64,000 nucleotides of DNA from Lytechinus pictus. Lineage: Eukaryota. This document shows, one piece after another, positions 712 to 44,669 of this stretch (positions are counted from its first letter, which is position 1; each line of letters opens with the position of its first letter). The notes under the pieces were generated by a model that was given only the letters and a program-made list of their open reading frames with translations, did no database searches and had not been told where the DNA came from. The stretch lies in the NCBI RefSeq assembly GCF_037042905.1, contig NC_087250.1, positions 20,586,001-20,650,000 on the forward strand, written 5' to 3'. The translations under genes were made by a program, and so were the position numbers.

Positions 712-2361
712 CTGAAAAGATAAGACAAATAAAAAAAAAAATCAATTTGAATTTCGAATACTCTTATTTCTTCCGTTTATTAAGGAATAGGTCACTTTTT
801 TTCCAAACACAGTTAAATAGAAATAAACAAGATGTCTACAGTGCGTCACATAGGACCTAAACAACGAAACTGAGATTTATCATATTTCAATAAAAAATAA
901 AATAGAAAAAATGACCTTTCATTGTGAAGCTTAGAGTCTCCTATACTGAGTATTTTATCTGGCATAACTTAAATCATTCCTCATTCGCGCATGAGTGAGC
1001 AAAATGAAATTGATGATATCAAAAAGTCGTTGGTTACTACTAAGAGAGTTTGGATAAATTTTCCAAATATTCAAACAACAATGTTCAGCTTTTAAGCTAT
1101 AAATACGCTTCTGTTTAAAGGAGAAGTTCACCCTGAAAAAAAGTTTGTTGTAAAAATAGAAGAAAAAATATTGGCGAAGGTGTGGTGAAAATCCATTAAA
1201 GGTTTAGAAAGTCATTAAAATTTTAAGATTGGATTTGTGATGTCATAAACGAGCAGTTGCCCCATTTATGCAGCCTAATATGCAATGCAAAAAATCATTT
1301 TTTTTAATGGTTCGTGATGACTTGTTTTTTTTTAGGAACGGATGAGATATGATTTGTCTATCGATATACTGACTTCTGAAGGTACAGTAAAAACCATGTG
1401 TAATTTTCTGAGAAAATAACATTTCATTGATTTTTTAGGTAGAAAAGCTGCTCGCATGTGACGTCACAATATGGACGTTTTTAATGCGTCGGTATCCATC
1501 ATAAAAAAGATGCTCATGGTGCAGTAAAGAAAGAAGAATAAGAAAAGGACACTTAAAAAGTTAAAAAGGGGAAGAATTATAATTACTCAAACTTAATTAA
1601 GTAAGATTCTAATAACTTTTTAATTCTTTGATTTTTCTCAAACCTTCGGCAATATTTTTATTATTTTTTCTGCTAATTTTACAATTAACTTCTGTCAGGA
1701 TGAACTTCCCCTTTAATTGTTTTTACATATTTTGGTTTATTAAAAAAATAATACCCGATCAGTCTACGTAGAACACTAGGTTGCATGATGCATTTCGTTT
1801 ACTTTTAATATGTCTGCATTTTTTCAGGGGAGGGGGGGTTACTTTTATTTTCTTTTAACCAATTTTCTGAAACATAAGCAAAGTAGGACTGGTAAAGTGA
1901 CAGATTATTCATTGTAAAAATTCTGTTCAACCAATCAGAGGCAAGGATTTCAGTAGCTTATAACAGTTGATGCTTACCATGTCAACGAGTCCAACGTAGA
2001 GGAACATGCCTGCCACTGCAGCGAAGATCCACTCTCGGGCAACATCAGTTTGTCCAAGTGGTATTCCGACCCACAATCCGAGGAAAGCCGTACAAGCGCA
2101 GAGCATGTTCAGGAGGAGCGCCGTGCGGAGCCGCATTCCTTGCTTTATGAGGACGGCCAAATCACCTACGGGGAAAATATGGAATAATCCGTGATTTAAG
2201 TTAATTTTGTTGGCACTTTTATTATCTAGGCCTATAGTGGATGTCATCATCATCATCATCGCCATCATGATGATAATGATGATGATCATGATGATGATGA
2301 TCATCATCATCATCGTCGTCGTCGTCGTCATCACCATCACCATCATCATCATCATCATCAT

Positions 2362-2392
<31 letters not shown>

Positions 2393-3102
2393 CTCGCAAC
2401 CACCATCACCATCTTCATCACCATCATCACCATTATTATCAACATCATCATCATCATCTTCATCGGCATCATCACCATTATTATCATGATCATGACAATG
2501 ACGATAATGATCTCCATCATCGTCACCATCAGCACCCAACACCATCACGAGTAAACATATTAGATCGATACCTAGTTCGTGCGGAAGCTCGTGGCAGAGG
2601 ACAGCTACGCTTGTTGAAAGTCCAGCAGCGAGACTGAGTGAGAAGGCAGCACCGATAGCCAGTCCGTCTCCAAAGTTATGCAACGCATCGCCGAAGATTA
2701 TCATCATAGCAACAGGATTGCAACCTGCAGCAAGAAAAAAAAAACGACATTAGTATTTGGATTAGGCGAAGGCCTCTCGGATTCCTTTCCTTATTACAAT
2801 CATCGTATTTGTATATGTATTTATTTAGACATACAAAGTAAAACACGTCAAAGGGATACAAAAAAAGTTTGAAAACCCATACGAGTTTGAATCTCAAAAC
2901 AATTAAAATGAAGTAGCATAAAGATAAAAGTATAAGTTTAACAATCGGAAAATAAAACAATGTAAATTAAAATAGAAAAGGACATAGATAACTTTTATAG
3001 ATTTATGTAACAACTAAAAATATCGTGGTAATCATCATCTTCATCATCACTCACATCACCGCCACTGTCAACATCATCGATACCACCATCATTTTTTATA
3101 CT

Positions 3103-3144
<42 letters not shown>

Positions 3145-6100: not shown

Positions 6101-9100
6101 AAACATCAAGAAATGGTAAATAATTTGTTTGATTTTAGGTTGTACTTTTTTCAATTAGACATATATATTATGTATGTGTATAAATGTAAGAGAAAAGAAT
6201 ATAGAAAAAAATGTATATCAGATATTTTGAGAACAAATTGAATTGATGTAGAATTTATTCATGACATTGTTCTACTTCATTTTCGTTAAGAATTGTCAAA
6301 TGCATAAATGTGTTGATCACAATAATTGTACGTTCAAACAAAGCGTTGTAATTACGGTGTGATTTAATTTGATACCGTTTTTAATTTATGTTCATGAATG
6401 TAATATTTACTATGTTCAATTTTGTTTGATGAGAGAAGAAAATAAAAGATTATCACCAAAAAAAAAAATCCGCCGCTACACCGGCAAAGTGTTAACACCC
6501 TCTACGTTCGTTGATTGAAACTAATTATTACCAGATCAGTTTTTGACTCGGTGATAGTCGGTTGGGTGAAAGCCGTACCGTTCACCGGCGAACCGTTCTT
6601 GATGAAGGAATTCCGAGTGGACAAGCTACGCCGACGTTGCCCGTTGATTGTCATCTCCATGTCCTCTACTGACTGGTTGTGTGAGTGTCCGAAGATCTGT
6701 CAATGGGGATGTAAAAATAATTTAAGATTAACGTTTGATGCAGGGTTTAATGGTATCGGCTTGTAAGTTATATCAGGGGCCCATTTCATAAGCCTAATTT
6801 TAATACTCCCCCTACTCGAATTATAAAATGATACCTATGTTCTGCACCAAAAACAAAAATCAGGGGCTTTGGAACTAAATTTTGGTCTTCTTGTTGTCGG
6901 GTCACTACACAAGACCTGTCCAGTAGAGGGTACAGTATCTGGCTTCGGGATTAAAGGACTCCAGATCTTCGGCAGTGCATGGCTCTGGTAGGAGGGGGCA
7001 GACCAGAAGGTGTTGCATCGTCTGATCCTCCCCACACTCGCAAGCAGTGTCCCCATCTATGTTGTAGCCCCATTTCTGCATAAGGACTTTGCACCGTCCT
7101 GTCCCAGACCGTAGGCGATTAAGACATTGCCAGGTTGGCCATTCCTCACTTGAACCCGGGGGAGGGGGGGGGGGGGGGGAGTGACTCGCTAGGTCCATAG
7201 GAAACCTTGTGCGTCACAGACTGGAGGTGGTTGGACCATAAGTTGACCCTTTGATCGTGAGCAGAGCCATCGAGGGGTTCAGTCGAGTGAAGGAAACTAC
7301 GTCTTGATTTGAGTCTCTTTTGGGCGGGTTCATGGTTGTAGAGTGGATGGAGAGGATTATCTTCTTGTTTAGTTTTTTCCACCTGTGCTTCAACCTCTCT
7401 TCTGATGTGTGGAGGGGCAATGGCACACAGTAGGTAAAGATCATCTACTCTTATTGGTCGTAGGCAGTCAGTAATTGCTCTGCAGGCAGCATTCAAGGCT
7501 GGATCAATCTTCGCAGCATGGGATGACCTACACCAGACAGGAGCTGCATACTCGAAAGCTGAGTAGCATAGAGCAAGAGCAGTTGTACGGATGGTTTTGG
7601 CATCTGTTCTTCATTTCGTGTTGGCAAGCTTCTTCAGGATGCTGTTCCTTGCTCCAACTTTAGCCTTTGTCTTGGCAACATGTTCTCTGTATGTTAGGGA
7701 ACGGTCAAGGGTGACACCGAGGTAGATAAGCTTGCTGGTGTGTGCCAACCACTTTCCATACCATCTGACCCTCAGTCTCCGGTCTGCATCTCTGTTCTTA
7801 AGATGGAAAGCACTGAGTTGGGTTTTCTCTGGATTTGCTCGGAGATGATTTGCTGCATAGTAAGGGGTCAGGCCTGCCAGTGCATCACTGAGTGCTTTTT
7901 CCACCTCTTCAAAGGACTGCTTCTGCGATGCAATTCAAAGGTCATCAGCGTCCAGGTAGCTCTTGGTACTTGGATGGATTGGTTGGTCGTTCGTGTAAAT
8001 GTTGAAGAGGAGTGGGGCGAGGACGCTTCCTAAATGGGGGTCTCCGGAACTGTTCTAGTATTAGTGATTGCTAACAATGCAATGCTCTGGAATGGCATAA
8101 ATTCTTTATTCCGGAACGTGCATGAATATGCAAAAATTGGTCATGACGTTTCCGTGGCATTTTCATATATCGTGAAATAACAACAATATCAATGAAATGT
8201 CATTTTTAAAAAGTTGAATATTTCATATTTTTAATTGTACCTTCAGTATATCAAGAATCTTTGAAGTCATCATGAACAATAAAAAAAAATTGATGCATTC
8301 TTCATTAGATTATATTTATATATATACACAACAAAAAAGTAAGTCCCCCCTAAATCAAATTGCTGTAACTTTTGAACGGAATTATTTTGAGATCTGATAT
8401 TTCGTAGGTAGTTTTCTACACTCATTAAGCAACTCCTGGGGGAAAATGAGATTGATCGGTTGAGTCATGCATGAATAGTTAAAGATTGAATTAAAAATGA
8501 CCATTTTTGAAAGTCACAAGAGTCGTTTTCCAGATTGTGCAAATACAAAGTTGGGCAAAAGTTGTTTTTAGGTGAATTTTATGGTGTTAATGCTGTATTA
8601 CTATCCATCATTTAGCCACTCAACACACAATTTTGATATCGTATGTTCATGGTTGAGTGAGCACAATATTTCAGGGGCCGCAGAAGCGGGGGGGGGGGGG
8701 GGTTGGGGGCCCCCCACTTTTTCCAAAAACATGTACAAAAATGTAAAATTGACCATACGATTGTGATTTTTTGCATGGTCAGCCCCCCCCCACACTTTTT
8801 GCTCAGCCCCTCCCCCACACTTTGAAAACCGTTCCGCGGCCCCTGTATTGTGACGTATCATCATAGGGGTTTTGATAGTATCCTCTACAACTTGTTAGGT
8901 CTTATCAAAATTTGAAAATGTTGGTGGCTACCCCGATTATAGTCCCCTCCCCCATTTTTAAATTCTGGATACCCCCCTGATTTGTCCATGAATTAACTGA
9001 TCATGAGAAATTGTTAGGAAAAGAATACATGTATGCAGTATAAAGAGTATTCATTCCTAAGTTTTCGAATGTGCTCGCTCAACCATGAAAATGTTAAAAG

Positions 9101-12100
9101 TTCGGAAAGTGTGTGGTGATAGAAATGATGGTTGATAAAAACAACAGCAATTAAAGTCACATTTGAAACCGAATTTGCCCCCAATATTGAACTTATTACC
9201 CTTTAAAATGAGTCTGTGACATTGAAAATACCCATTTTCCAACTTTGATGCGTGCTCACTCATCCATGAATAAACAAATCGATTTCATTTTTGCACAGAA
9301 TTCTGCCCATAGGTTGATAAACATTACTGCCAAATGACATCGCTAAAGACAGCCTTGAAAAAAAGTTCCACCATATTTAATAAGGGGTTACTTATTCATA
9401 AACATATGCACCCATAATGTACACAAGTCAAGAGAGAGGAAGTCAAAATTTTAACAAATATGAAATAAGGGTTTGTTTCATGGACGGTTTCTGTTACTTC
9501 TGCCAACAGTTATTTCATGAACCTTCGCACATGGCTTCAGGGTGACACTATCCAAAAGGCGCGCACACCAAAATAACAATTCGATACGGCACAGAGTGGG
9601 GCCAAGGCCTTGAACTTTCTTCCCATTTGCATAATTTTCGAATATTGTGTGCTCATTGATGCATTAAGCATCGGGATTTTCATAAAAATCAAATCGAATG
9701 AACCATGCAAGGAGGTTTGTGACAGATATCCATTGTTACAAATTGCATTTTTTCCAATAACGTAAAAAAGAGCTAATCACATTCCACATGTTCATTCAAG
9801 CGTGAATGTTTAATTGAACGCCTTTGAATCATTGAAGCATGTTGATTGCTCATGAACATAACGAAAAAAATGATAAAAGATCAGTATCAGTTACCAAAAT
9901 GACACAATACTTGCCTATGATATTTGAAAATCGTAATTTTTGTTTTCAATAAATGTTCATTGAACCGTGAAACAATGAATATTGTTGAAGATACTCTTCC
10001 CAAAAATAATTTTCATCATATTCGATCATTTTTATTGATAAAAATGTGTAAAAAATCAAATTATAGCAAATTTGGACTTGTGTTTATTCAACCGTGAAAT
10101 TTAGCCAAAAAAGTTGCATCGTCTTTTAGAAAGTACCTTTACAAGCCTTCTGACTATATTTCATGATGAGAATGTGGAATCAGTTCATATGAAATGGAAT
10201 CAAAGTCATGATATTTGGCTTTTGACTTTTGAAAAGTGACATTTTTGCCTTCCGACGGTGCTCACTGAAGCATGACGTAAAATACGTTCATAACATTTAC
10301 TCAGAAGGTAGCTTATAAAATTACCTACACGCTCATGTAAAAATATATCAAAAACTCGCATTGGTTCGGAAATTATTGATGTTTGTTCAAGGGGGGACTT
10401 ACTTTTTTTGTTGTGTATATATGGGGCAGCTGCTCGCATACCAACTCACAAATCAAAAACCTAAAGCTCTAATAACTTTCTTAATATTTGATGGACTTCC
10501 CTCAAACCTAATTCACCAAGATTTTTGGTGGTATTTTTACAACAACCTTTTATGAGGATGATCTTCCCCTTTCAGGGTGATATCTGATCTAGAGAATGCT
10601 CAATCAAACTAATTCATAATCCGTATGGTTGATGGTTATCTAAAAATGTGTATATTTGTCAAACTAGTTGTTTATAACACGCATTTGAGTCGAGTGAAAA
10701 AGGACCATCACCTACCCCCAAGAAAGTAGTCGTTTGCTCGAAGACGAAGAACACATACAGAGCCATCTCCACAACCAGACACTTCCAGATATAGGCCATC
10801 TCAGGATCGGTTGGTTTATGTGCACCCTCTCCCTCGCCGTGGTCGTGTGAGTGTAGTCCTACAGCCTGGAAAAAAAATATTAAAGAGAGGAAGGCGTTAG
10901 GACGACTTCGTTGACTGGCATATGAAGGGGCAAGGGGGGGGGGGGGGGCTCTGGCCCTTCAGAACCGACAGGACCAAGAAGGGGGGGGGGTGCAATAAAA
11001 TTCTGAAAGAAATTTGAAACAAGATGGGAAAGCGATCGAGCACGTCTTTAGGGCGCTTTGTCTTTGAAAATGAAGGATTATGTACCCTCTTTTGGTGAAT
11101 TTGGTGATCATTTTCAGTAAAACATTTTTCCAAATTACGCGGGGGCATGCAGGGAGGAAATGATGGAGGGGAAAAAAGAAAGGAAGCGGAAGATAATAAT
11201 AAAATGATTATCTAAAATAATTAATTTGTATTCCATAATGAGATTTCTTATCAAAAAGACTAAAATTTCCCTGGGCTTGCTAGTCGTTTATTTATTTTTT
11301 AAGAGACAGTTTGTTCCATACAATTAAGTCGAATTCCATTTTAAACACACGAGCTGAGGGAAAAATGATTACATATGTGTTCCCTAAAGTGTTTGATGCC
11401 CGCCGTTTCGTAAAGACTTATTAACATAACACAATACACAATTTTATAGCATATTCATAACATCGGATATAACGATTTCAGTCAGTAGCTTAAAACTTTT
11501 ATTGGAATTTGTTATTATAAAACGTGTTATGAAACGGTCCCCTGGTTTTCATGACAATCATTTCTCATGAAAAACTCAAAGCCAATACGAATCAGCAGCC
11601 GCCTTGTAAAGCGCCAACATACGTCTTCAACTACTCAAATCTGTGTAGGTTCATAACACATAATGCATCATTCTCAGCAGTGTAGTCTTGTAATATAAGC
11701 CAATTGGAATGATAACACCAATCCTCTACTCGATACATTCGTATAGAAACCGCAATAATTCTGTTACAAAGTAGGATTACAAATACTTTCCATCTCAAAA
11801 TATTTGAGTTTCTCTTTAGCCTACAAATAATATCATTGGCCAATAAGAAACTATTATCTGAATTATTAAGAGCTATCTCAAAAGGATTATTTTAAGACTA
11901 GCTATTTATAACACACAGTCAATGATAGACCGCATTAAGAATGCATACCCACGTAGTGTTGAATGATGACTAACATTTCTCATGAATAGCTTGACATTGC
12001 TTACCTGTGGGAGAAGATGCAAGATAGCATCACCAGTCAATGTCGCCACGGCCAATGCGATCATGGTCTGTATGGTTTTGTCGTAGAACGAGTCCGACAT

Positions 12101-15100
12101 ACACGGTATGAACAGGCCACCAAGGACCGAGGATAAACTGATGATTAACACGGCCAAAGTGCCATATCCCCACACTGCATAAATATATGAAAAAGGAATA
12201 TTTTTATATCTGATATATGTGTTTCACCACCAAAATGGTTACTTAATTTAAATATTCCCCTTTTAAAGAGTTTATGAATACTTTCCTTAATGGAACTATA
12301 TGATCTTCATGTCTTGATACAATATTACTCAATAACATTGAGCGTTAAATAAAGTGGGCGTCAGCACTATAAGCTGACTTGAAGTAAAACCTAACTCTCT
12401 GTTAAACACCCCAAGTTTGTGTTTTTCATCATATTTTGAAATCATATTAAAGAATTATACTACGCCGTATAAAAAAGTTATACACAGCAAACACGACGGT
12501 GTTAATTTAACACCAGCCTGGTATCTCTATCGGTCCACACCAGATAAGCCTTGAAACAACACCAGTTATAAGAATCAAACCGATATTGGTTCAACAGTAA
12601 TTAGTGTTGCTTAAATGCCAAATTGGTGTGGACCGATATAGATACCAGGCTGGCGTTAAATCAACACCGGTGTTTTACCAGTGTACACTCTCGTTGATAT
12701 TTTAATATAAACTAATATTAGCAATTTTCTGAACATTGGATAAGCCAAGTAGAGGCGCAAGGGATGTATGCCCCCTTGTTTGTTATGAGAATTTCCCTTT
12801 AAACAATCTAAGAAAATCGTCACCCGCACCTTCAATTTTCAAACTTAGTTTTTGCTCCCCTTCTATTTCAAAATCCTGTATCAACCACTGCTGATTGCCG
12901 AATCCTTTCAAGTTAATTCACAATCAGTTCAACAAATTGAATTAATACAAAAAATAATTTCGTATATATGAATGACCTATATTGACACGTAACTTTAATT
13001 CAGTCAATTTCAGCTCAATATGGACAGCACAGGCATGCATTGAAATAAAAAAGTTGATTTGAATTGAATTCTAATTAAACGAAAATTTATAATAAAATTT
13101 ACATACAAGCCGTACGGTAAATATAGACTGATAATATTCCTATACAGACCAATGTCGGCACCTATTTAATTCAAAATTCTTTTCTGGACTCTTTATATAT
13201 GTTTGATTAATCGTTTTCCTGTTTTAAAGAAAATGAAGTAAAGAATTATAAATTGATTTTCCTATACATTTTGATTCATTATGTAAACGGTTTGTTTGAA
13301 AAACATCCACTTTTGCCATCAAAAGGAAAAGATAACAAAAAGGAAAAAGAAAGTTTCATCATAATCACGTAAAATTCAAATGCTCATGTTCGTTCATGTC
13401 ATTATTCACAACATCCGAGTTCGTTCGAACTTTATCTATTTTTTGTGCTCAGATCACGTTTCAGTATCAAAGCAACGTTATCACTATATATTGATAAACA
13501 TCCTCATAAATAATTATGATCTACTAGCATGTTGTCTGTTTTGTCGCTTTTTTGTTGCTGTTCCACAATATCTAAAGAAAAAAAAGAATGAACAGGCCTC
13601 CAAAGACCGAGGATAAACTGATGATTAACACGGCCAAAGTGCCATATCCCCACACTGCATAAATATGAAAAAGGAATATTTTTATATCTGATATAGGGAT
13701 GTGTTTCACTAAAAGTTAAGTATGATTCAAGGCCACCGCAGACCTTACGATTGGTCTGCGACCCGATTTTGGAATACAACTTAGAATTTAATGCTAATAT
13801 TGGGTGATGGAATATCTTTCTGTGTAAAGTTCTAAATCATCGTAAATATACCCATGTTCAAATCTGTGACTATGCTATTATCCTTATCAGAATAAAAGCG
13901 AATTCAAATTCTATAATGACGTCATGGCAACTTACGATTTCCAAACGATTTGAAACTTACTTGGCTTTTACACACAATCATCCAATTTGTTTAATATTGG
14001 TAATCTTTCAGTCAATATGAACTTCATATAAAATGATACTTTTCATTATTTTACATTTTCAGAAAATGAGCAAAATGTGCAGTTGCGTGCCGAATAAAAG
14101 GCATCACCACATTGATCAAAATATGCTAAGAGGACGCGCGCTAAGTGCAAGCGCTTTTTATGATTGATTTGTGTTGATTTTGTATTTATGTTTTTCTCAT
14201 TTGTATTATGGGGAAAATGAATATAGAAATGAAATAAATCAATAAGTTTCAGTTCAATTCAAGATCAATCGTGATAAGTGAAAGAAAAAGTGTTAAGACG
14301 CCACCAATAGTCATATCTAGTACATCTTTTTTTATTTTAAAAAAGATAATTGATAACACTTGCTATTCCAAAGTAGCAATTAAAACGAATACTATTATGA
14401 AAATATGAAATTTATAGTACATATCCCAAAATAATGTGTACGCTCAAGTTTATCAGTTGACGAAATCCCTGTAAATAAGCAGACATCGGCCGATTTATTG
14501 ACCATAATTTTGGTTGATGTTGACATTTTTTATCGGTCGGACACATACTGTATTCACCACCAGAATGGTTACTTAATTTATTAAATATTCCCCTTTTAAA
14601 GAGTTTATGAATACCTTCCTTAATGGAACTATACGATCTTTATGTCTTGATACAATATTACCCAATAAAATTGAGCGTTTAATAAAGTGAGCCTCAGCAC
14701 TATAAGCTGTCTTGAAGTAAAACCTAACTCCCTGTTAAACACCCCAAGTTTGTGTTTTTCATATTATATTTTGAAATCATATCAAAGAATTATACTACGC
14801 CGTATAAAAAAGTTATACACAGCAACAACGACGGTGTTGATTTAACACCAGCCTGGTATCTCTATCGGTCCAAACCAGAGAAGCATTGAAACAACACCAG
14901 TTATAAGAATCAAACCGATATTGGTTCAACACTAATTAGTGTTGCTTAAATGCCAAATTGGTGTTAGCCTAACGCCAAACCGGTTTTGTTTACAGTTTCA
15001 AAACCTCTTTGGTGTGGACCGATATAGATACCAGGCTGGCGTTAAATCAACACCGGCGTTTTACCAGTGTACATTCTCGTTAATATTTTGATATAAACTA

Positions 15101-16295
15101 AGATTTAATAGCAATTTTCTGAACATTGGATAAGCCAAGTAGAGGCGCAAGGGATGTATGCCCCCCCTTGTTTGTTATGAGAATTTCCCTTTAAACAATC
15201 TAAGAAAATCGTCACCCGCACCTTCAACTTTCAAACTTAGTTTTTACTCCCCCTCTATTTCAAAATCCTGTATCAACCACTGCTGATTGCCGAAGCCTTT
15301 CAAGTTAATTCACAATCAGTTCAACAAATTGAATTAATACAATAAATAATTCCGTATGTATGAATGACCTATATTGACACGTAACTTTAATTCAGTCAAT
15401 TTCAGCTCAATATGGGCAGCACAGGCATGCATTGAAATAAAAAATTGATTTGAATTAAATTCTTATTAAACGAAAATTTCTAATGAAATTTACATACAAG
15501 CCGTAAGGTAAATATATAGACTGATAATATCCCTATACAGACCAATGTCGGTACCTATTTGATTCAAAATTCTATTCTGGACTTTTCATATATGTTTGAT
15601 TAATTGTTTCGCTGTTTTAAAGAAAAGGAAACAAAGAATTATATATTGATTTTCCTATACATTTTGATTCATTATGTAAACGGTTTGTTTGAAAAACATC
15701 AACTTTTGCCATCAAAAGAAAAAGATAACAAAAAGGAAAAAGAAAACTTCATCATAATCACGTAAAATTTAAATGCTCATGTTCGAATATGTTATTATTG
15801 AAGAGTTAACTTATTCACAACATCCGAGTTCGTTCGAACTTTATCAATTTTTTTGTGATCAGATCACGTTTCAGTATCAAAGCAACGTTATCACTATATA
15901 TTGATAAACATCCTCATAAATAATTATGATCTACTAGCATGTTGTCTGTTTTGTCGCTTTTTGTTGCTGTTCCACAATATCTAAAGAAAAAAAGAATGAG
16001 TTACGAGAAAAGAAAAAGCAAAAAAATATATATATCGCTAAGGGGGAATCGTGGTTGTAAATATTTTGAGAAAAATATCAAAGCTTTTGCGAACTTCAAA
16101 ACATTACTCACCTTGAGCTATGGGTATTTCAGACGGCTCAGTGACTGTGGTCTCTGCGCATGCGCCACTCAAAATTTGTTGCACCAGTGATGGAGACAGT
16201 GCGTTGAACTGTTCTTGGGTAAGCCCCGCCTCGTGATCGATGCCGTAGATGTCGAGAAGTTCCTCACTTGAAAAACATGTCTGCAGTCAGGAGGT

Positions 16296-16330
<35 letters not shown>

Positions 16331-19300
16331 GAGGGGGGGGGGGCGCAGACGCAGAAATTGAGAGATTTAGAGGAAGAGAGAGGGGAGGGGGAGAGAGAGA
16401 GATCCTTTTAAAAATAGACATTGGCGCGATGGCGACAATTCCCATTTAATCTTCCCTACTCAATTTTACTGACGGGCACACGCTTAAAAATACCCTTAAT
16501 ATTTTTTTATTTTTGACTACAAGTTAAACGATTGCAAAACAACTTGAAAAGAACCCCTGATCATGCTTTAAAGATTCCCTTTTTGCACGAAATTCGTAAC
16601 TGACACCGGCGTTTGCGCCCATCCGATCTTGTCATAAGAGTTAATATTCGCTTGATCTATCTATTTTCTATTTTCTTCCTAATACTTATCTATGCAAAAA
16701 TTACAAAATAAGGGGTTCTTTATCATTTGCCTGTTTAGAAGCTTAAATTCCTTTTAGTTTTATATTTCTTTATAACATTGAATAGGTTGATGAATGATTG
16801 ACATATTGAAAATAATTAAAGTTTAGTAATCACCACAACGGTGACATAATAATCAGAAGAATACTATAATAGAATTAGAACCCCTGTTTTTGAGAGAGTA
16901 ATACCTTACACGTTGGTCCCCCACAATGCGTGTTATATGGCAAACTGTCTGTTTAGGCTAATAAAAATTGTTTTAAACACCTCCAAACAGACAGATTTAA
17001 ACTGTCTACTGTCAACTTAGAATTCGTTGAAAACATTCAAGAGTAGAACAAACAATTTTAATATACCAAGAAGAGATTTAGCTGTCTGATTCGTCAGAGC
17101 CTCTCAGGGAATTAGTAACCTACTATAACCCCGTGGTGCAGCTCCTTTGGGTCCATATTCACTCATACAGCAGTCAATATATCTTTATATCCAATGATTT
17201 CTTACAATCAGGTGCAATAAAATGTCTAGGTATATGCCTATCGTAAACTATCGTGCAACACAATGGCAGAAAGATGCAAGTGTCAAAGCAGCCAGGGTTG
17301 ATTTAATCCATTCTCACTCTTACTTTCAAAGCGATAGCTTATTCATATCAGTTTGTTTAAATAAAATGAATTACCCCTTCTTGAAGATATGTCAGGCAGG
17401 CATTGTGGTGTCGCATTGGCATCAATCACATCCTTGCAAATGACTGACAGACATTTCTTTAAAAGAAAATATATTTTTCGTCACTTGCGTCTTTTTGCAG
17501 CTACAGTTCAATGCAAGGAGGTGAATGTACTGTATGTGTTAAAGATAACATTTCACCCCTGACCTAACCATATGGCGCAGCGCAGACAAATGCTACATGA
17601 GTGCGTTGCACGCGGTGAATATTTCGTGATATTCTCCGACTACTGTTATAAGCTACGGGAATTCTCGCTTCTGATTGGCTGAGGTGAATTTTCCTCAGTA
17701 AAAACCAACGACAGGATGTGCCTTGAGATGCACCCCAAGAATAAGATAAAGACATGTTTCCCCAAAAGAATAGCAACTTAATACATGTCTTTTGAAAACA
17801 AAGAGAGAGGTCGGGAGAGAGAGAGGGAAAAAAAATCATCCAATCCCCCTTTAAAGGGAATGATGATTTTTCATTTGCCCTTTTTCTGATTATGCAGTTA
17901 CCCAACACTTTTTAATGAATTGTTATTGATTGCTCGTAAAGAGATTGAGTTAAAATGGTAAAGATAAGGAGGTGGGTGTGGTTCTTACCGTTGCAACATC
18001 CGGTACGTGCGAGTGATTATGATGATCATGATCGTGGCCATCATGGTTGTGGCCATCATCAGCCATTACCGTAGCTCGTTTCTTAATGCTCCTTCTCTTC
18101 AAGCCCGTTGACATGACATCTCTCCTCCTACGGGTGTGATCGTGGTCATGATCGTGACCAGGATGGTCGTGATCATGGTCATCAGCTGCCATGGCTTCCC
18201 TCCTCTTTCGGGTGTGATCGTGATCATGATCGTGTCCTGGATGGTCGTGATCATGGTCATCAGCTGACATGGCTTCCCTCCTCTTTCGGGTGTGATCGTG
18301 GTCATGATCGTGACCAGGATGGTCGTGATCATGGTCATCAGCTGCCATGGCTTCCCTCCTCTTTCGGGTGTGATCGTGGTCATGATCGTGACCAGGGTGG
18401 TCGTGATCATGGTCATCAGCTGCCATGGCTTCCCTCCTCTTACGGGTGTGATCGTGGTCATGATCGTGTCCTGGATGGTCGTGATCATGGTCATCAGCTG
18501 ACATGGCCTCCCTCCTCTTTCGGGTGTGATCGTGGTCATGATCGTTACCAGGGTGGTCGTGATCATGGTCATCAGCTGCCATGGCTTCCCTCCTCTTTCG
18601 GGTGTGATCGTGGTCATGATCGTGACCAGGATGGTCGTGGTCATGGTCATCAGCTGCTATGGCTTCCCTCCTCTTTCGGGTGTGATCGAGATCATGATCA
18701 TGGCCATGATCATGATCGTGGTTATGGTCATCAGCTGCCACGATGTCCCTTCTCCTACGGGCGTGGTCGTGCTCATGGTCGTGGTCATGATCGTGGCCTG
18801 CATGCTCACCGATACCCAGATCCATCATTATATGAATGAACTCTGAGTTGTGGGAAAAGAAAATAGCAAATTTATTTTCCGTATTCATGCACTCACATGT
18901 CATCTTGTGAAGTTACATACAGAAAATATAAAAATAACAGAAAATATAAGAATAATTTATTGATTTCTGCAATTCTTTTGTAAACTATTTAACAATAAAA
19001 GCACAATAAACATAGCATGGAAAAAGAAACACCTGTAGGCCTATTTTCTTTGAAATATCGATTAAAAACATCAGAGGGGTTACACGACATTTGCTCCTGC
19101 GACAATGGCTCCGGCCTTAGGTTCGTCTAAGATATAGGGTTAGGGTTGCATTATAGGATTTTATGTTAAGTTTAGGGTTAGTTTTAGAATTAGGGTATAG
19201 TGTTAAACCCTGGGTTGAAGTCGGTCATTCGATTAGTGAGTGGAATTTAGAACGGAGCAATTGTCGTCGGAGCAAATGTCATAGACCTGCAGAGGATGCC

Positions 19301-22300
19301 ACTCTAAGCATAGCTTGACTGGGTGACAAACATTTAAAACAATTAACGAACATATATATCCCATCATCTTTCTTAATGTAAGTTTCAGAGAATGTGAGTT
19401 AAAGCTTGAGGCAATTAAAGAAAAAGAGCAATTTTTCATACATTCACTGAATATTACTGCAAAAGTCATTTTTTTATTTTTATCATAAAATGAAAACTTC
19501 TAAACTTTTCAATCCCTGACCTTCCTCTGGGATGACCCCTGACGTTCCATATATGTCGAATATATATTCGGTGAACGCCGCGGTCGACGGCATCGAAGGC
19601 TCTCCTATGCAATGACCATGAAGGAGTCCGTTGATCACGACCTGGGCGATGTGGTGCGTCTCGTGGTCGTTAGCCCCTGTCTCGTGGTCAGCCACGTTTT
19701 CCTCGAATACGGATTCGACGTTGAAGCACTTTAGATCACATGAGGAAATTAAAAAGAGCAGGTTAAATGTATATTGATTTACATTAATTAAATCTCTGAT
19801 CAGGGCCCTGTGAAGGATTTTATTGCTTGGGTGGCTGAAGTGAAATGGACAAGCCCCCCCCCCCCAAAAAAAAAGGGGGAGGGGGGTAACACTCAAAATG
19901 AAGGTCGTTTAGTTCCCAAGAAATTTGACAAGCATAATTTCGTCACGAGAACTTTGACTGACAGGCATACAAAAAAAATACACGCAGCACCCCCTGGGAA
20001 AATCCTTGGGATACCCCCGCTTCCCAGGGTTATTTCTCTATTTATAAATAGGCCTACAATCAGGGAAAGTACGAATTGAATACATGTACTTTCAGATTTC
20101 TTTTCGAATAATAAACTATGGATCTTCATTTTCATATATAGGGGTGATTCGTTACGTCATACGCTGGGAGCTTCACATTGTAGGCCCTATTGTGAATTAA
20201 AAAAAAATAATTGAAATGTCATTTCTAAAAAAAAAATGAAAATGAGATCAACAGACAATTATTTCACACTCGCTCCAAAACGAAAAAAAAATTGTTATAA
20301 ATCATTAAAAATTTGAGATTTATGCATTTTTATATTACATAAGGTACAGGGTAGCTTCTTGTTTATGACGTCCCAAATCAAAATCTTTAGCTCTTTAATA
20401 TAGTAATTTTATTCAAATATCTATTTAAATCTTTAATGGACTTTCCTCGAAACTTCACCAACATTTTTCTTTTACATTTTCTTACAGCAAACTTTTCGTC
20501 AGGGTGAACTAGAGATCGGAAAAAAAATCACTGGCGAACATACGGTAGAAATGTTGCTTACTCATCCACTCATCATCACTCACCTTCGTTTAGTCTAATG
20601 CCACTACCTCCACTCCCTACATTTCGTCTACCACCCATTTGGTCTAAGAACCAATTGGTCCATCATCACTTCGTCAATGACCATTTCGTCTAATAACCAG
20701 TTGGTCTAATACCAGTTTTCTTTTCATGCATTTCGTCCATATGACACTTAGTCCAATCAGACCAAAATGGAATATGGACTAAATGGCGATTGGAGCAACT
20801 GGTTATTAGACGAAACGGCGAGTGGACAAAATGACAATTAGACCCTTTGGATGAACTGATGGTAGACCTAATGATAGAAGACGAGCTGGTATTTGGACGA
20901 CTTGACAAGAAACCAATTGAAAATGAACCTGTAAAGCCGGGGCCCCGTCTTACAAAGAGTTGCAATTGATCCAATCAACCACAACTTCTATGGAAAGCCA
21001 GCAACGTCAACATCCAAACTTCATATTTGTTCGAAACATTTTCTAAATAAATGATATGTATTCATACATTTATAGTTTTCTTGAAAATTCAGCGTGCTTC
21101 TTTTCGTTTACAAAGGACATTTTGCAAATTTCCTGAAGAAAAATTATGAAGTTGATGGATTTCCATATACACTAGGGATGGCTCCGCGGTATGTCGATGG
21201 GTCTTTGGTAATCCATGCTGCGTTCAGTGAACGTGTAAAAATTCCCTTTATAGCTATAGCATGTCAGGGGATTTCTTTGCCCACAAGTCATGATCCATAT
21301 TTCAAGGAACTTGGGTTCAAGTTGGAGGGCATGTTATTAGAAGATCAGTCAAGTTTAGCACATGTTCACCAAATGGGACTTTGTGTAGGTTATGGGAGGA
21401 GAGGCACGTTATACGTGTCACCCCGACTAAAGAACAGCTAGCCCTCGGGTTGAAATATTATAAGAGGACCATGGACGTAGCTCAACTGACTTTGCATAAA
21501 AATTATAGGTAACTTCAAATGAAAATCGAATTGTATTTGTTTTTTATAGAATGTTTACAATGTAACATTTTATTTCAACATAAAAAAGCGAAAAAGATGG
21601 GATTAATGGATGGTGGCAGCGTAAATTTTAATTGAAGCAAATCAGATCACCCACTGGCGGATCCATGGGGGGGGGGGGGGGGGGGTTCACAGCCGGCCCG
21701 TGCCCCCCCCCCTTGAGAAGCAAAATTAAGATTTGTATTGTAGAAATGCCATTAAGACAGAAGTGTGACCTTTTTTTTTTCGGGGGCGAAATATCATCAT
21801 TTTTTGGTTAAAAACCTTTTTTTGTTATCATTTTTTTTATTGTCAAATTTTTGCTCGGAAAAAAAGCCCCCCCCCCCCCCACTTTGGAAAATCCTGGATC
21901 CGCCCCTGAGATCACCCATTATATGGTAGTAAAAAGATCGTGCACAAATGTGGGAGCTAGGGTGTGTGTGTGTGGTGCGTTAGGGTGGTTCGCGCAGTAG
22001 TTCATCGCACACATTACGACTGGTCTATCATCCGGGAAGAGTCGACAATTTAACACATTTTCTATTAGTACAAATTATAGAAATATCTTGTTTGACACGT
22101 GTTTTATGTTTTCGTCATTTGAAATACCTCTTGCCAATTTGTTTAATGTTTCCCGTTAATTTGTGAATTATTTCCGTTTATATTATTATATAGTTGAATA
22201 CTACAATGGCATATATACACACTATTTCATTTCCCAGACACACAATTCACTTTCAGTTAATATTTCCTTCTAGAATTCCACAGCACAATTAGTTTCAATA

Positions 22301-25300
22301 CCATTCTTTTTCCGTATCATGTATTTTGTAAATATCTGTGCTACTGCTTGAATATTTGTGTGTGTGTCATTATTACCTTGTAATACATCGCGATTCCGCC
22401 TTAGCCGCGATGATGTCTTGATTTTTATTAATAAACCATTTATCTATATATCTATCTATCTATCTATCTTCTATCTTACTATCTATCTTCTATCTTACTT
22501 CTATCTATCTATATATCTCGTGTTGGTAAAAATTTATGAAAACACTAACAAGAAACTGTTAAAAAATATGCAAGTGTTAAGTTATACAGTTCAGTGTTTA
22601 AAGGATTGAATAATCATATGAAATGCTCTAATTTCTCTGAAAATCGGATAGCAACGGATCGACAATTAGTGTGCGCCGGGCTCTGTTGATGATGTTGTTT
22701 TCTTGGGTTTTAAGGCGCGTTCCATTCAGATATGAATATTTACGCCTATGAATAATTTGTGTTATTTTGCGGGTATAAATTTGTGATGCAAAAATGCTCT
22801 AGATGCGCAATAATCAGCCTTTACACAGGCTTATTTCAGTAACACAGGGTTCATATCGAGTTTATAATGCCACAAAGAGGTTAGCAAATCTTAAGACCTT
22901 GTAATGAATTAATGAGAATACTAGTACCCCGTGCAATCGGAAGCCGTGCTTATTTATTGGAAGTGTCTTAAACGCCGACATCTGTTCCCGGAATGAGCAA
23001 TATAGGTGCTACTTACGTAGTTAAAATTGCCCATATAGGCATATAGGCCCTATCAAGGTCTAGTTTTACGAGCGTGTATCCTGTTCAGTGTAATGGGAAT
23101 TGCTCCCCTCGACGACTGTTATACTTTCACAAAAGGGTTCATTAAGTCACGATCGATCTTAAAGGAAGGTTATACCGGGATCTCTCCTTGTCATTTTCTT
23201 ATTCGCATTTTTTTATATATATCAAGAATTGCCCTTTTTAACTACACAAATATTTCAATCATATGAATCCTATTTTTTGCATATGAATAATTTGATATTC
23301 TGCATGTGTCTTAACAAAATGCATTTGGAATTGCAAGGGACGGATCCAGGATTTTCCAAAAGGGGGGGGGGGTAAACTATACCCGAAAAAATTTGACAAG
23401 CAAAACAAAAAAAAAAAGTCTTCAATTAAAAAAAAAAAGGGGGGGGGGGGGACACACCTCCGTTTTTCTTCTCAAAAAAAGGGGGGGGGGGCACATGCCC
23501 CTAGTGCCCCCCTGGATCCGCGCCTGGGGATTGCAATTGGAAAAGGATAAAACTATAATAAAATAAATTTGATTTAAAAGGGTAACTTTGATAAAGAAAT
23601 CAAATAAAAGAGGAATTCATACTAAATCGAAAGAGCTAATCTAGCTCCTAATTACACTCCCCTTGGAGTTCTGCATGCAGTTCACTCCAAAAAGAGTCAT
23701 AATGCACTCTTAAAGGATGTACAGCTCACTCCAAAGGGATTGGTACCTTGTATCACTCCAAGAGAGGCGTGATTAGCGATTAGATTAGACTTTTTTTTAT
23801 TGCATTTAGAGAGTATCTTCTTATTTTTTCTTTCTATTTCACATTCAATTCAATTCAATCCTTCCATTTCCATTCAAAACATAATACAAAGTAATATAAA
23901 GTAATACACATCAAGTACAATTTTACCGACGAGCATTCTAACTTCGTAAAACAAAAAAATACCCAGTATAATATTGAGCATAAATGGAAATGAGGGGGGT
24001 CCACTAAAAAACAAAGCTTGTAAAGTGTGGATCCCCACGGAAATGAAGAAAATATAGTCGACTTATTCATATATGCGTACATATACAGGAAAGAAAAAAG
24101 AGAAGGACATACCCCCCCAAAAAAAAAAAAGATAAAATACGCGAATTATTGAATCTAGTTATCAATCGCTTACCGTGGCCATGGTCGTTGCTGTATAATT
24201 CTCACGTATTGTGTTCAGAATCATTTCTAGGTCAACCTCGCTCAAAGTCGCGTTCGAAGAATCAGGCGCCGTGGTCATAAGTGACGTCATGACCACGCTC
24301 TCGGTGAGGTCGGTCCCACCCGGGCCGGCGTGGCAGACGGAAACCATCTCGTAGGTCCCGTATAGGAGGATGGGGCTGACGTGGAGGAATGTGGCCTCGT
24401 CGAACCCGTGGTCGACATCGATCCCCATGGTTGAGAAGACATCTTCTGTAAAATCATTCTGACACTGTAAAGTAAAATGAAAATAAAATTGGATGGCGAT
24501 CAGTAATGTTTCTCTAATGATTAGTTTTATTTATTTCCACATAAAACACGACATAACCTATAGTAGTAATCCTACATGATTTTATTACAGATAAAACTTT
24601 GAAATTTGCAACGAAAAACTGGAAAAAGAAATAGGAAGAATAAACAGAAAACCCATAGGCACATCCATGCACGATGATCTCGCGTTTTTTGGGGGGTTTT
24701 TGGGGCTCTTTTTTTTTGGGGGGGGGGGGCGTGGAAAGTTCCCACTCTCGGATTTCATATTCTGTACAGCATCTCTTCGAGGATTGTTTACCCTCGAAGG
24801 ACCCCCCCCAAAAAAAAAAAATTCCCACGAAATCGCTATATGCACAAACACATCCATGCAACTCATAATCTCTTTAGTTCGGGGTAAACAAATGAACATA
24901 TCAATTACTATCTTGAGGTTGAATGTCAATTTCAAATAGGTTTTTATTAAAAAAGTACTCTACTAAAAAAAGCAGCAGACTTACAATGAAAGACATATAT
25001 ATTCACCAAAGGTCACTGATTGAATTAAAAACCCAGAAAAAATCAAACCACATAATTATGTGTATATATTAGACAAATTATTCATCGGCCTAGCAGTCAG
25101 ATACTCTATTTAAAGCAAATAAGGGCATACTGGATCCAAATAACACGATGTGGTAATGCGGCATGGTGCATTTAATGAATATTTTGCCACGCCCACATTT
25201 TTATCACATGATCACATGTTTGGGCGCGTGAACCAGCCACTGTGTCACACTATTGTCGCCACAATGAAGTATCAGTTTGTCGGAATCGAACCATGTAATC

Positions 25301-28127: not shown

Positions 28128-28182
<55 letters not shown>

Positions 28183-29252
28183 ATATCTATCCAGCGATCT
28201 ATATATCTATTTATCTATCTATCCATCCGTCCATCTATCTAACTATCTATCTATCTATCTAACTATCCAGCGATCTATCTATCTATCTATCTATTCATCC
28301 ATCCATCCATCCATCTATCTTTCTATCTTCATTTCTTTCTTTCGTTCTTTCTTTCTAGGTATATATATATCATTATACTGCAGTCTTGATCAAGTGTTTC
28401 TTCAAACCTCTCAGTTATGAAATAAAAATTAATGTGTAAAAATAAAATACATTATAATGAGGAATTTGTTTCCTTCATTTATCGTTTCAGTTTTTTTTCT
28501 CAGTCTTTTCACATTCCTTATTAATCGCAGGCTGTTGTATTTTATTGAATCCAACAAATAAGGCTGAAGAGGTCCAAAGCCGAGAGCTTACAGAGAACTT
28601 TATAACACTTGCATCATTTCTATTTTTAGTAACTTTTCCTCATCAAGACACCAATATTTCCTTTGTTATAATACTTGCATGAAGTAATAATGTAATAAAA
28701 TAAAATTAACGTAATATATTGTTCGTATAAGTAACTAGGAATTATCTTATGCTCTTTAGTAATTCCTCTAACTAAATGAATTTGCGCATATATTTCCTTA
28801 TTTGCAATTGACATTTTAGGCACTTGGGTTATAAGCGAAGACATCTTCTTTCTATTCTTTCTATAAAAAAAAAAACCGAATTTTCAGTAAAATTCGTTCA
28901 CTTTTACCTTTGTGCAGTTCTCTACCCGATGTTCACAATCGATTCGCCCGAAAACTATTTCGACCAAAGAAAGAACTTGGGAATAAGAAATGTTCTGCTC
29001 CAGATTGTGCGAAAAGTCGAATTCCTCTCTCAGTTCGGCAAGCTCGGCTTCCAAAAGATAATTTCCAATTTCCACAAAGTCCTCATGGTCGTGCTCGTGT
29101 TCATGTTCGTGGTCATGGTCATGCTCGTGGTCATGGTCATGCTCGTGTGTATCCCTCGATTCTCTCGTCGACGTCGCCCCTGAGATCGTCAAAAAGTTTG
29201 AAAGGATGAGAATGAGGATGAAACCTCTGCACACGGTACCTAAGTACGCCAT
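574..29252 (-). CDS. SLC39A12: LIV-1 subfamily ZIP zinc transporter (ZIP4/ZIP12-like), 12 coding exons, 966 aa. Join (minus): 28908-29252, 24174-24464, 19521-19728, 17989-18842, 16112-16280, 12005-12174, 10716-10865, 6532-6696, 3571-3640, 2572-2724, 1978-2165, 574-711
   Basis: All introns are GT-AG with matching phases; total 2901 nt. Signal peptide, Cys-containing ectodomain (CF..., [16 protein letters not shown]-like motif), TM1 VWGYG, TM2 [11 protein letters not shown]4 [12 protein letters not shown]5 LIV-1 signature [11 protein letters not shown]-terminal LYED. ZIP12 versus ZIP4 orthology cannot be resolved by eye, so the symbol is tentative. Confidence 0.9.
1119..1712. mobile_element. 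TTAA-flanked MITE (Kolobok/T2-like)
   Basis: TTAA|AGGAGAAGTTCACCCTGA ... TCAGGATGAACTTCCCCT|TTAA; related fragments near 10420-10575 and 20270-20510. Confidence 0.8.
1978..2165 (-). CDS. ZIP exon 11 (TM5-TM7)
   Basis: ccgtag|[34 protein letters not shown]; donor ATG|gtaagc. Confidence 0.95.
2244..2548. repeat. Degenerate (ATC/GAT)n microsatellite in ZIP intron 10
   Basis: Direct reading. Confidence 0.95.
2572..2724 (-). CDS. ZIP exon 10 (TM4-TM5 metal site)
   Basis: [25 protein letters not shown]; ctgcag| and G|gtatcg. Confidence 0.95.
3030..3338. repeat. Degenerate (ATC/GAT)n microsatellite in ZIP intron 9
   Basis: Direct reading. Confidence 0.95.
3571..3640 (-). CDS. ZIP exon 9 (loop)
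   Basis: tcacag|[26 protein letters not shown]; donor G|gtacgg; provides the phase 0->1 link needed. Confidence 0.75.
3700..4839 (+). mobile_element. Degraded L2/CR1-group LINE RT fragment
   Basis: [33 protein letters not shown] (tatgcagacgac), [21 protein letters not shown]; frameshifted. Confidence 0.88.
5024..5337. mobile_element. MITE, TIR GGCCCGTATTCTGAAGTC (Harbinger-like)
   Basis: Long inverted ends; second copy at 31319-31630. Confidence 0.82.
6532..6696 (-). CDS. ZIP exon 8 (TM3-TM4 cytoplasmic loop)
   Basis: tgacag|[29 protein letters not shown]; donor CTG|gtaata. Confidence 0.8.
6905..8033 (-). mobile_element. 5'-truncated degraded LINE (RT C-term + CCHC finger; possibly Ingi/Vingi-like)
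   Basis: [37 protein letters not shown]; frameshifts; clade assignment tentative. Confidence 0.8.
8327..10415. mobile_element. Non-autonomous TA-TSD DNA transposon (Tc1/mariner-like), copy 1
   Basis: TIR CACAACAAAAAA(A)GTAAGTCCCCCC at both ends, TA flanks; no transposase ORF. Confidence 0.88.
10716..10865 (-). CDS. ZIP exon 7 (His loop, TM3)
   Basis: ttccag|[38 protein letters not shown]; donor GGG|gtaggt. Confidence 0.88.
12005..12174 (-). CDS. ZIP exon 6 (TM1-TM2)
   Basis: atgcag|[34 protein letters not shown]; donor CAG|gtaagc. Confidence 0.92.
12108..15999. repeat. Tandem duplication (copy 1 ~12108-13591; copy 2 ~13588-15999, with a ~0.85-kb insertion at ~13710-14552) including the 5' part of ZIP exon 6
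   Basis: Colinear near-identical sequence, e.g. 12225.. vs 14555.. and 13480-13590 vs 15880-15998; ATGA junction microhomology. Confidence 0.92.
16112..16280 (-). CDS. ZIP exon 5 (PAL-motif-like membrane-proximal ectodomain)
   Basis: ctgcag|[50 protein letters not shown]; donor G|gtgagt. Confidence 0.9.
17989..18842 (-). CDS. ZIP exon 4: tandem furin-site/His-Asp peptide array
   Basis: actcag|AG TTC (phase 1) to ACG|gtaaga (phase 0); open frame through the 78-nt repeats. Confidence 0.9.
18121..18759 (-). repeat. Coding tandem repeat, 78-nt/26-aa unit (TRKRREAM[A/S][17 protein letters not shown]): 7 near-identical units plus a diverged 27-aa first unit
   Basis: Read directly; 9 R-[KR]-R-R motifs spaced 81 nt then 7x78 nt. 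Confidence 0.97.
19521..19728 (-). CDS. ZIP exon 3 (ectodomain)
   Basis: ctaaag|[34 protein letters not shown]; donor G|gtcagg, phase 1. Confidence 0.85.
21652..21908. mobile_element. hAT-type poly-G/poly-C MITE with 8-bp TSD AGATCACC; related copy ~23335-23526
   Basis: AGATCACC|CACTGGCGGATCC..GGATCCGCCCCTG|AGATCACC. Confidence 0.82.
24174..24464 (-). CDS. ZIP exon 2 (ectodomain)
   Basis: tttacag|TGT CAG..; [25 protein letters not shown]; donor ACG|gtaagc. Confidence 0.85.
28128..28330. repeat. (CTAT)n/(CCAT)n microsatellite; shorter one at 22441-22515
   Basis: Direct reading. Confidence 0.95.
28908..29252 (-). CDS. ZIP exon 1: signal peptide, His/Glu/Asp tract, start of ectodomain
   Basis: [62 protein letters not shown]; donor AAG|gtaaaa, phase 0. 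Confidence 0.85.
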
Positions 29253-44662: not shown

Positions 44663-44669
44663 ATTAATG

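Follow-up and report, generated by a model that had tools for sequence, protein, structure and literature searches.

Zinc importers of the LIV-1 group are known for histidine-rich loops and for the cutting of their ectodomains, and the relation between cutting and metal capture in these proteins is unsettled. We describe here a ZIP gene of the echinoid Lytechinus pictus whose histidine-rich loop contains a tandem array of His/Asp-rich clusters, each bounded by motifs of the type recognised by furin. The gene lies in a stretch of 64,000 nucleotides (NCBI RefSeq assembly GCF_037042905.1, contig NC_087250.1, positions 20,586,001 to 20,650,000), referred to below as the window; all coordinates are those of the window unless another locus is named. 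Its closest described counterpart is ZIP4 (SLC39A4; bat ZIP4 ectodomain, PDB 4x82), which has the same domain order: a helix-rich domain, a PAL-motif domain and an eight-transmembrane ZIP domain. The available text of PMC4915132 treats the helix-rich domain as the mark of LIV-1 subgroup I (ZIP4 and ZIP12), places the ZIP4 loop at residues 232-255 between helices alpha11 and alpha12, where it is disordered in the crystal, and assigns four disulfides, none of which spans the loop. Accounts of the ZIP4 loop, as far as they were available, describe it as carrying His clusters, binding zinc and aiding transport. The L. pictus loop likewise separates the two helix pairs of the PAL-motif domain, but it has 284 residues against about 24, and ZIP4 has no tandem repeat. 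In the aligned loop of bat ZIP4 only a K-R pair follows the His cluster, and there is no tetrabasic motif.

In ZIP6 and ZIP10, of LIV-1 subgroup III, the corresponding position in the topology is taken by an unstructured loop that is over 200 residues long and contains His clusters, according to the available text of PMC4915132. In a review available in part, N-terminal proteolytic cleavage of both proteins is reported and tied to trafficking or activation; a review figure legend puts the cleavage at a PEST-type site, and the available parts of the reviews report no periodic convertase motifs. ZIP6 and ZIP10 lack the helix-rich domain and have a Cys ahead of the PAL motif, whereas the L. pictus gene has the domain and has a Ser at that place. 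Outside the family, multi-copy precursors (neuropeptide and antimicrobial polyproteins such as the database protein P0008) contain tandem identical peptides bounded by R/K-rich convertase motifs and follow the secretory route. These are dedicated soluble proteins, whereas the L. pictus array is nested in a folded domain of a multi-pass transporter. Histatins and other His-rich metal-binding peptides are short, His-rich and secreted; histatins are basic and come from small dedicated genes, whereas the 22-residue peptides encoded by the L. pictus array are acidic. A purely functional analogy can be drawn with Pra1/Zrt1 of Candida albicans, in which a secreted zinc binder works with a ZIP-family importer (PMC3386192, available in part). 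Pra1 is a separate folded protein with its own gene, and no sequence or structural relation to the L. pictus array is expected.

The whole His-rich loop of the ectodomain is encoded by exon 4 (17989..18842, minus strand), which is 854 nucleotides long; two nucleotides complete a Glu codon and 284 codons follow. On the minus strand the exon is preceded by a polypyrimidine tract and AG ahead of 18842 and followed by GTAAGA after 17989. Only one of its three frames is open, and in that frame it joins exons 3 and 5. His and Asp make up 49% of its residues. Nine R-[K/R]-R-R motifs (seven RKRR and two RRRR) stand at residues 28, 55, 81, 107, 133, 159, 185, 211 and 237, so that the spacing is 27 once and 26 thereafter. 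Converted from residue positions, with codon 1 starting at 18840, the motifs span 18121..18759 on the minus strand (18759-18748, 18678-18667, 18600-18589, 18522-18511, 18444-18433, 18366-18355, 18288-18277, 18210-18199 and 18132-18121). Two further basic sites follow in the tail, KRR at 18099-18091 (residues 248-250) and KKR at 18084-18076 (residues 253-255), both on the minus strand; KKR is the conserved second basic site of the loop, immediately ahead of the last His/Asp cluster. Between the basic sites lie seven 22-mers, of which three are identical, two carry Ser, one Ile and one Asn, together with one variant 23-mer. Each 22-mer holds 6-7 His and 7 Asp and is acidic, with a computed isoelectric point of about 4.6-4.8.

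These observations agree with the initial annotation of the stretch, which had taken exon 4 to be coding sequence placed after the signal peptide and before the first transmembrane segment. The open frame and the in-frame borders with exons 3 and 5 uphold this placement; the nine tetrabasic motifs that it had counted at a period of about 26 residues, with KRR and KKR beyond them, were all recovered at the same coordinates, and the seven near-identical His/Asp 22-mers and their single variant reappear in the table of units. Tandem Repeats Finder delimits the array at 18122..18783 (minus strand; period 78, 8.4 copies, 91% matches, score 1052), the 78-nucleotide unit encoding a 26-residue module of one tetrabasic motif and one His/Asp 22-mer. 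As copies of one unit, the nine basic sites do not count as nine independent events. Plus-strand open reading frames across the array are open owing to the repeat only, have neither splice nor homology support, and were rejected. When exon 4 was searched against its own genome, the 100% self-match was accompanied by two weak matches on another contig (C8; L002 and L003, about 20.69 Mb). These were discarded as a non-coding satellite-like repeat, the translation of which is open, with units of the form H-T-Y-T-Q-K-I-I-K... The same search found no free-standing gene with the His/Asp module elsewhere in the genome.

On its domain content the gene is assigned to the ZIP4/ZIP12-type (LIV-1 subgroup I) zinc importers. 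The sequence H-E-L-P-H-E-L-G-D spans the junction of exons 10 and 11 and is present both in the public L. pictus protein P0001 and in the L. variegatus protein XP_041466548.1 (P0013, 992 residues); HEXPHEXGD is the metal-site motif of LIV-1 proteins. The ZIP transmembrane domain PF02535 is matched by P0013 at 197 bits over residues 647-982, and likewise by the proteins P0003 and P0004, whose tblastn alignments cover exons 1-3. P0013 also matches the helix-rich domain PF18292 (ZIP4_domain) at 56.5 bits over residues 121-279; exon 2 on its own reaches 18.7 bits, under the cut-off of 26.3. Exon 5 matches the Pfam profile EF-hand_Zip (PF21116) at 44.1 bits against a cut-off of 27, over profile positions 72-110 of 110. 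Its PAL motif reads S-P-S-L, in which Pro and Leu are kept and Ala is replaced by Ser, and the residue that precedes it is Ser, as in ZIP4, and not Cys. In full-length relatives the domains follow one another in the order ZIP4_domain, EF-hand_Zip, Zip.

The position of exon 4 within this order points to a loop that is already known. PF21116 is matched by P0013 at positions 58-110 only, after the array, and by the S. purpuratus orthologue at positions 17-110, spanning a short loop. The bat ZIP4 ectodomain (4x82) aligns with the S. purpuratus orthologue over the loop region (E = 1.9e-8), and the S. purpuratus loop residues fall opposite the ZIP4 histidine-rich loop. Because of the exon 5 match, the domain order, this alignment and the position of the ZIP4 loop, exon 4 is identified by homology as the known His-rich loop of the PAL-motif subdomain, greatly enlarged, rather than as a foreign insert. 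That the loop is real, constitutive and expanded seems to us very likely. The exon 4 sites are expected to be luminal and accessible, a topology deduced from the N-terminal hydrophobic segment and the homology to ZIP4. An insulin-like disulfide clamp across the loop was considered and rejected, as the ZIP4 disulfides do not span it. AlphaFold2 applied to P0013 with an alignment of eight sequences (A1) gave an unusable model (mean predicted local distance difference test score, pLDDT, 33.5; predicted template modelling score, pTM, 0.20).

Exons 1-4 are expressed and spliced, as shown by a transcript contig of the run X1. Reads were mapped in four runs over 18784-24600 only, a stretch chosen clear of the long array. 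In the first X1 record (970 nucleotides, depth 51.1), 24174-24466 is placed directly beside 19521-19728, with intron 2 removed exactly, and the first 166 nucleotides fall below 19521. X1 depths in two bins, 15.5 (18784-18977) and 10.3 (19366-19559), equal 51.1 x 59/194 and 51.1 x 39/194, and one X1 record extends past the end of the mapped stretch. From the 166 nucleotides, the depth fractions and the overrunning record we infer that the contig runs from exon 3 into 18784-18842 of exon 4 without intron 3. Thus, of the exon 3-4-5 junctions anticipated in the initial annotation, the first is supported through the depths of X1, and mapping ended at 18784, ahead of the second. Skipping of exon 4, which had been named as a possible objection, would join exon 3, ending in phase 1, to exon 5, starting in phase 0, and so shift the frame and create a stop at codon 287; it was therefore rejected as a normal isoform.

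The seven units of 26 codons differ from one another in 10 nucleotide columns, seven of them synonymous and three non-synonymous, against 14 synonymous and 64 non-synonymous sites per unit (one-sided binomial p = 4e-4). By this test the peptide sequence of the units appears to matter. Units 3 and 6 share three variants, a higher-order pattern. Four features place the array beyond chance: one frame alone is open, the splice sites are canonical and in frame, synonymous variants are in excess, and P0013 has the same array. Its presence in two species and, in part, in a transcript contig rules out an assembly artefact as its origin.

Orthologues were compared in four genera; a protein search with exon 5 gave four clusters. 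The L. variegatus protein P0013 has RRRR, seven RKRR and RRRR at the same spacing as in L. pictus, and its 26-residue units differ from those of L. pictus mainly at one position, which is Thr in P0013 and Ser in L. pictus. The orthologues of S. purpuratus (722-725 residues) and of two Diadema species (715-720 residues) have no array. Conservation of the RKRR spacing among orthologues, for which the initial annotation had looked to other echinoderms, therefore holds for the nine sites of L. variegatus and fails in S. purpuratus and Diadema. In alignment A1 the array fills about 210 columns (~327-540) in which only Lytechinus has residues, and among the four genera compared the array is, on these sequences, restricted to Lytechinus. 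The S. purpuratus loop consists of a His cluster, RRRR, a spacer of some 15 residues with K-R at its end, and a second His/Asp cluster; the Diadema loop follows the same order with H-R-R in place of RRRR. R545 and R546 of the first site and K561 and R562 of the second are invariant across A1, and the spacer varies. As the repeat unit resembles the second module of this loop (basic site, A-x-x-A-D-D, H-D run), the array is best read as a tandem multiplication of a pre-existing loop module.

A second arrangement of the same kind is found at the N terminus. The motif R-E-S-R (29154..29165, minus strand) stands directly ahead of the N-terminal His cluster D-T-H-E-H-D..., and an R-x-x-R motif directly before this cluster, a few residues after the signal-like segment, is present in all eight echinoid sequences examined, in the forms RESR, RDSR, RSKR, RPRR and RLRR. 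The set comprises the L. pictus gene, L. variegatus, two S. purpuratus sequences, two Diadema sequences and two L. pictus paralogues, B and C (besides the L. pictus gene, P0003, P0025, P0004, P0029, P0013, L012:606-995 and L010:998-1366). A cut at this motif would leave His as residue 3 in seven of the eight, the exception being paralogue B; His at position 3 of an N terminus is the layout of the amino-terminal Cu/Ni-binding motif.

When the L. pictus genome was searched with PF21116, four additional PAL-motif exons came to light in a cluster on the same contig, at a distance of about 7.6 Mb; the loop exon was found for three of these paralogues (A, B and C). The His/Asp array is absent from the paralogues. 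All three loop exons have RRRR or RRRRR after the first cluster, and the second basic site takes the forms R-A-R-R, R-T-E-R and R-V-E-R. Paralogue C (L010:6868-7185, contig C6) has lost both His clusters and keeps RRRRR and R-V-E-R at the conserved places, which argues that the basic motifs may have a role of their own and are not mere charge balance. The situation in which relatives keep the His/Asp tract and lose the basic sites, envisaged earlier as evidence against processing, is thus not the one found: basic sites are kept across echinoids, even where His is lost. Since they are retained in orthologues and paralogues, and R-x-x-R recurs at the N terminus in 8/8 sequences, convertase-type sites beside His clusters are, by this comparison, a family trait that Lytechinus has multiplied.

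The furin motif, in the available text of PMC3281273, is R-X-[K/R]-R with hydrophilic, flexible flanks. R-X-K/R-R is found at 9/9 array boundaries in L. pictus, and likewise in P0013. In the L. pictus genome there are six matches over the cut-off to the convertase P-domain PF01483, at no fewer than five loci (at least five). Given a furin-type motif in a hydrophilic luminal segment and convertase P-domains in the genome, we think that the loop is probably cut, at most of its sites. In the maturation that we propose, the ancestral echinoid loop would have run from a His cluster through RRRR, a spacer of ~15 residues and a basic site to an A-x-x-A-D-D-(H-D)n cluster, and in the Lytechinus lineage a 78-bp unit of basic site and His/Asp cluster would have been duplicated in tandem to eight modules. 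The ectodomain would pass through the secretory pathway, furin-type convertases would cut the exposed hydrophilic loop after R-x-K/R-R, and a carboxypeptidase would trim the basic residues. The mature transporter would then carry an ectodomain of two chains, each newly exposed end bearing a His cluster. In Lytechinus the cuts would also release as many as eight His/Asp peptides of 22-23 residues (about 2.49-2.64 kDa) into the lumen or pericellular space. For the trimmed peptides the computed monoisotopic masses are 2510.93, 2526.92, 2492.97, 2487.91 and 2637.06 Da. The freed peptides may bind zinc with modest affinity, like the ZIP4 loop, and may buffer or concentrate zinc near the transporter entrance. 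We regard this chain as a whole, in which the peptides would work for the transporter on the spot and not form a secreted product in their own right, as evenly poised between right and wrong.

The N-terminal domain had initially been expected to be shed. This is doubtful by analogy with ZIP4, in whose solved fold alpha10-11 pack against alpha13-14, so that a nicked ectodomain could stay together in the same way; on the other side, no disulfide spans the loop, and a ZIP4 construct truncated after alpha11 is monomeric, all as given in the available text of PMC4915132.

Several points weigh against the proposed maturation. Cleavage is predicted from motif, topology and conservation, and the available parts of reviews describe ectodomain cleavage of mammalian ZIP4, ZIP6 and ZIP10 without naming a convertase. 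Metal-bound His/Asp flanks might hinder a protease. The Diadema loop holds only H-R-R and V-K-R, without a furin consensus. Gene conversion within a young array, together with small numbers, weakens the comparison of synonymous and non-synonymous variants. Transcript support consists of one contig, and the mapped stretch ends at 18784, short of the body of the array and of the junction between exons 4 and 5. The raw RNA runs X19-X21 reach a depth of about 1.4 or less per exon bin; none of the joints listed for them is an exon junction (154 further joints are unlisted), and most of their reads are intronic repeats. Finally, full cutting would free the inner units, and constraint on the units would then favour a free-peptide function over a local role.

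The sites might instead go uncut, the loop being an enlarged ZIP4 loop, of a size comparable to the ZIP6 and ZIP10 loops, that acts intact and tethered as a multivalent zinc-binding antenna above the transporter entrance. The basic tetrads would then serve for charge balance (partial, at eight acidic residues per unit), for binding to sulfated matrix or for spacing. The constraint on unit sequence directly fits a tethered function, and the lack of a furin consensus in Diadema fits it as well. The ZIP4 loop acts while attached, in the accounts available, and LIV-1 proteins have His-rich loops of like position and size for which the available text of PMC4915132 gives no polyprotein role. A perfect R-K-R-R in a hydrophilic, probably disordered luminal loop is, however, a classic convertase substrate. 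Charge balance is also hard to reconcile with paralogue C, which keeps RRRRR without acidic His clusters, and the like type of motif ahead of the N-terminal His cluster in 8/8 sequences tells in the same direction. We hold this explanation, including its proposed roles for the tetrads, to be tentative, and doubtful rather than probable.

A different outcome of cutting is that the locus encodes a polyprotein selected for the free His/Asp 22-mers that it yields, which would act away from the transporter, either to shuttle zinc back to the importer (as a 'zincophore') or, in the manner of histatins, to withhold metal or act against microbes. Full furin motifs at regular, prohormone-like spacing would suit such a precursor, as would the retention of 9/9 sites in both Lytechinus species and purifying selection on units that full cutting would release. 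A profile search with exon 4 drew repeat-peptide precursors, among them P0008 with K-K-R-R between its units, and so the exon 4 layout is that of known polyproteins. Against this, neither the paralogues nor the orthologues of S. purpuratus and Diadema have the array, so that the role would be young and genus-specific. Linear His peptides usually bind zinc in the micromolar range (the ZIP4 loop value, in a review available in part), and such an affinity would probably be poor for scavenging in open sea water. The genome holds no free-standing module gene by the exon 4 search, and a search of 1.84 billion representative proteins gave no similar array. Dedicated secreted peptides of either kind thus seem to us quite unlikely. 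The comprehensive form of the proposal, in which one gene yields an importer and eight secreted His/Asp 22-mers that shuttle zinc in soluble form to that importer, withhold metal or act against microbes, and convertase cutting beside His clusters is an unrecognised maturation step of echinoid ZIP4/12-type proteins, we likewise consider unlikely.

Least probable of all, and in our view improbable, is a tolerated expansion with no function of its own, produced by slippage or unequal crossing-over in a length-tolerant disordered loop with the motifs carried along, for although the units are 91% alike in DNA and hence young, the variants shared by units 3 and 6 suggest ongoing unequal exchange, and one codon shows species-specific spread (Ser in L. 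pictus, Thr in L. variegatus), the unit number, all sites and the intact frame are common to both species, and synonymous variants are in excess.

Protein searches with exon 4 returned no similar array. Against the 1.84 billion representative proteins exon 4 gave nine matches at E <= 0.001; eight are unrelated tandem-repeat proteins, the ninth, the S. purpuratus fragment P0002, matches through the C-terminal flank only, and none of the nine contains the His/Asp array. In a word-index protein search, 7999 candidates were scored for exon 4, none at E <= 0.001, and 86 candidates for exon 2 gave no match. No paper was found on the Lytechinus ZIP array, or on furin sites in a His-rich zinc transporter ectodomain, in a search of a literature library without subscription papers and supplements. 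The L. variegatus protein sequence is already public, and no publication of its array was found. The original impression that no ZIP of such architecture is known should accordingly be narrowed: the loop itself is a known ZIP4-type feature, and what found no counterpart in the search of representative proteins is the array. His-rich loops and ectodomain processing are already known in LIV-1 proteins; the eightfold module of basic site and His/Asp cluster is the unusual twist.

The gene model as a whole has 12 exons and 966 codons on the minus strand, from 29252 to 574, without an internal stop. Exons 1-5 were defined by splice signals and frame, and exons 6-12 by GT/AG pairs chosen so that each junction gives the sequence of the public protein P0001 ('zinc transporter ZIP4-like [Lytechinus pictus]', 409 residues). 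The coding part of exon 1 (28908..29252), placed by sequence, the gene model and tblastn to P0003 and P0004, encodes the start codon, a hydrophobic signal-like segment, RESR, the N-terminal His/Glu/Asp run and the onset of the helix-rich domain. Exon 2 (24174..24464, 97 codons of the helix-rich domain) is joined exactly to exon 3 in the X1 contig. Exon 3 (19521..19728, 208 nucleotides, ending in phase 1) encodes the last part of the helix-rich domain together with the first pair of helices in the PAL-motif domain, and is supported by a piece of the X1 contig and by tblastn with P0003 and P0004. Exon 5 (16112..16280), the second half of the PAL-motif domain, was placed by PF21116 and is 100% identical to P0001. 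The ZIP transmembrane domain is encoded by exons 6-12 (574..12174), at 12174-12005, 10865-10716, 6696-6532, 3640-3571, 2724-2572, 2165-1978 and 711-574, with GT-AG junctions matching P0001; all these exons are on the minus strand. Each of the seven junction peptides of exons 6-12 (20-21 residues) has 0 or 1 mismatches to P0001, and 395 of the last 400 residues of the gene model are identical to it.

P0001 starts with nine codons from intron 4, followed by exon 5, and is without exons 1-4 and hence the signal peptide, helix-rich domain and His loop. The nine codons form an alternative first coding exon at 17130..17156 (minus strand; tblastn 100% over nine residues, followed by GT), and P0001 is either a real isoform from an internal promoter or a truncated model. 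Upstream of the conserved start, at a distance of 32 codons, there is an in-frame ATG (29346-29348, minus strand). The L. variegatus model P0013 begins at the corresponding codon; the models of S. purpuratus and Diadema begin at the conserved M-A-Y/T.

The introns contain several repeats. Intron 5 holds a tandem segmental duplication of about 2.3-2.4 kb (12248-13552 against 14581-15962, 92-99% identity). It contains, at 13588-13687, what appears to be a pseudo-exon, a copy (88%) of the 5' portion of exon 6. In intron 1 there is a (TATC)n-type microsatellite of about 330 nucleotides (28080-28411). Reverse-transcriptase-like fragments, judged by eye, lie in introns at 3789-4839 (plus strand) and 7146-7934 (minus strand). 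Outside the gene, long open reading frames at 41442-44710 (minus strand) and 58262-61066 (plus strand) are, also by eye, reverse-transcriptase-like and probably copies of a retroelement without long terminal repeats. A 1026-codon open frame at 54545-57625 (minus strand) is Ser/Thr-rich with long internal repeats (mucin-like) and has a Pro/Ala-rich end.

The gene model corrects the public L. pictus model, which is without the whole N-terminal half. More generally, in echinoid ZIP4/12-type genes each of the two ectodomain His clusters has a convertase-type motif as its immediate neighbour. Lytechinus offers tractable embryos, sea-water chemistry and gene editing. Should the sites prove to be unused, the locus would still clearly illustrate how a repeat can expand rapidly, and under constraint, within a metal-binding loop that is functional. 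If they are used, it would provide a natural transporter that matures to a two-chain form and sheds defined metal-binding peptides, and with it a concrete link between proteolysis and zinc acquisition.

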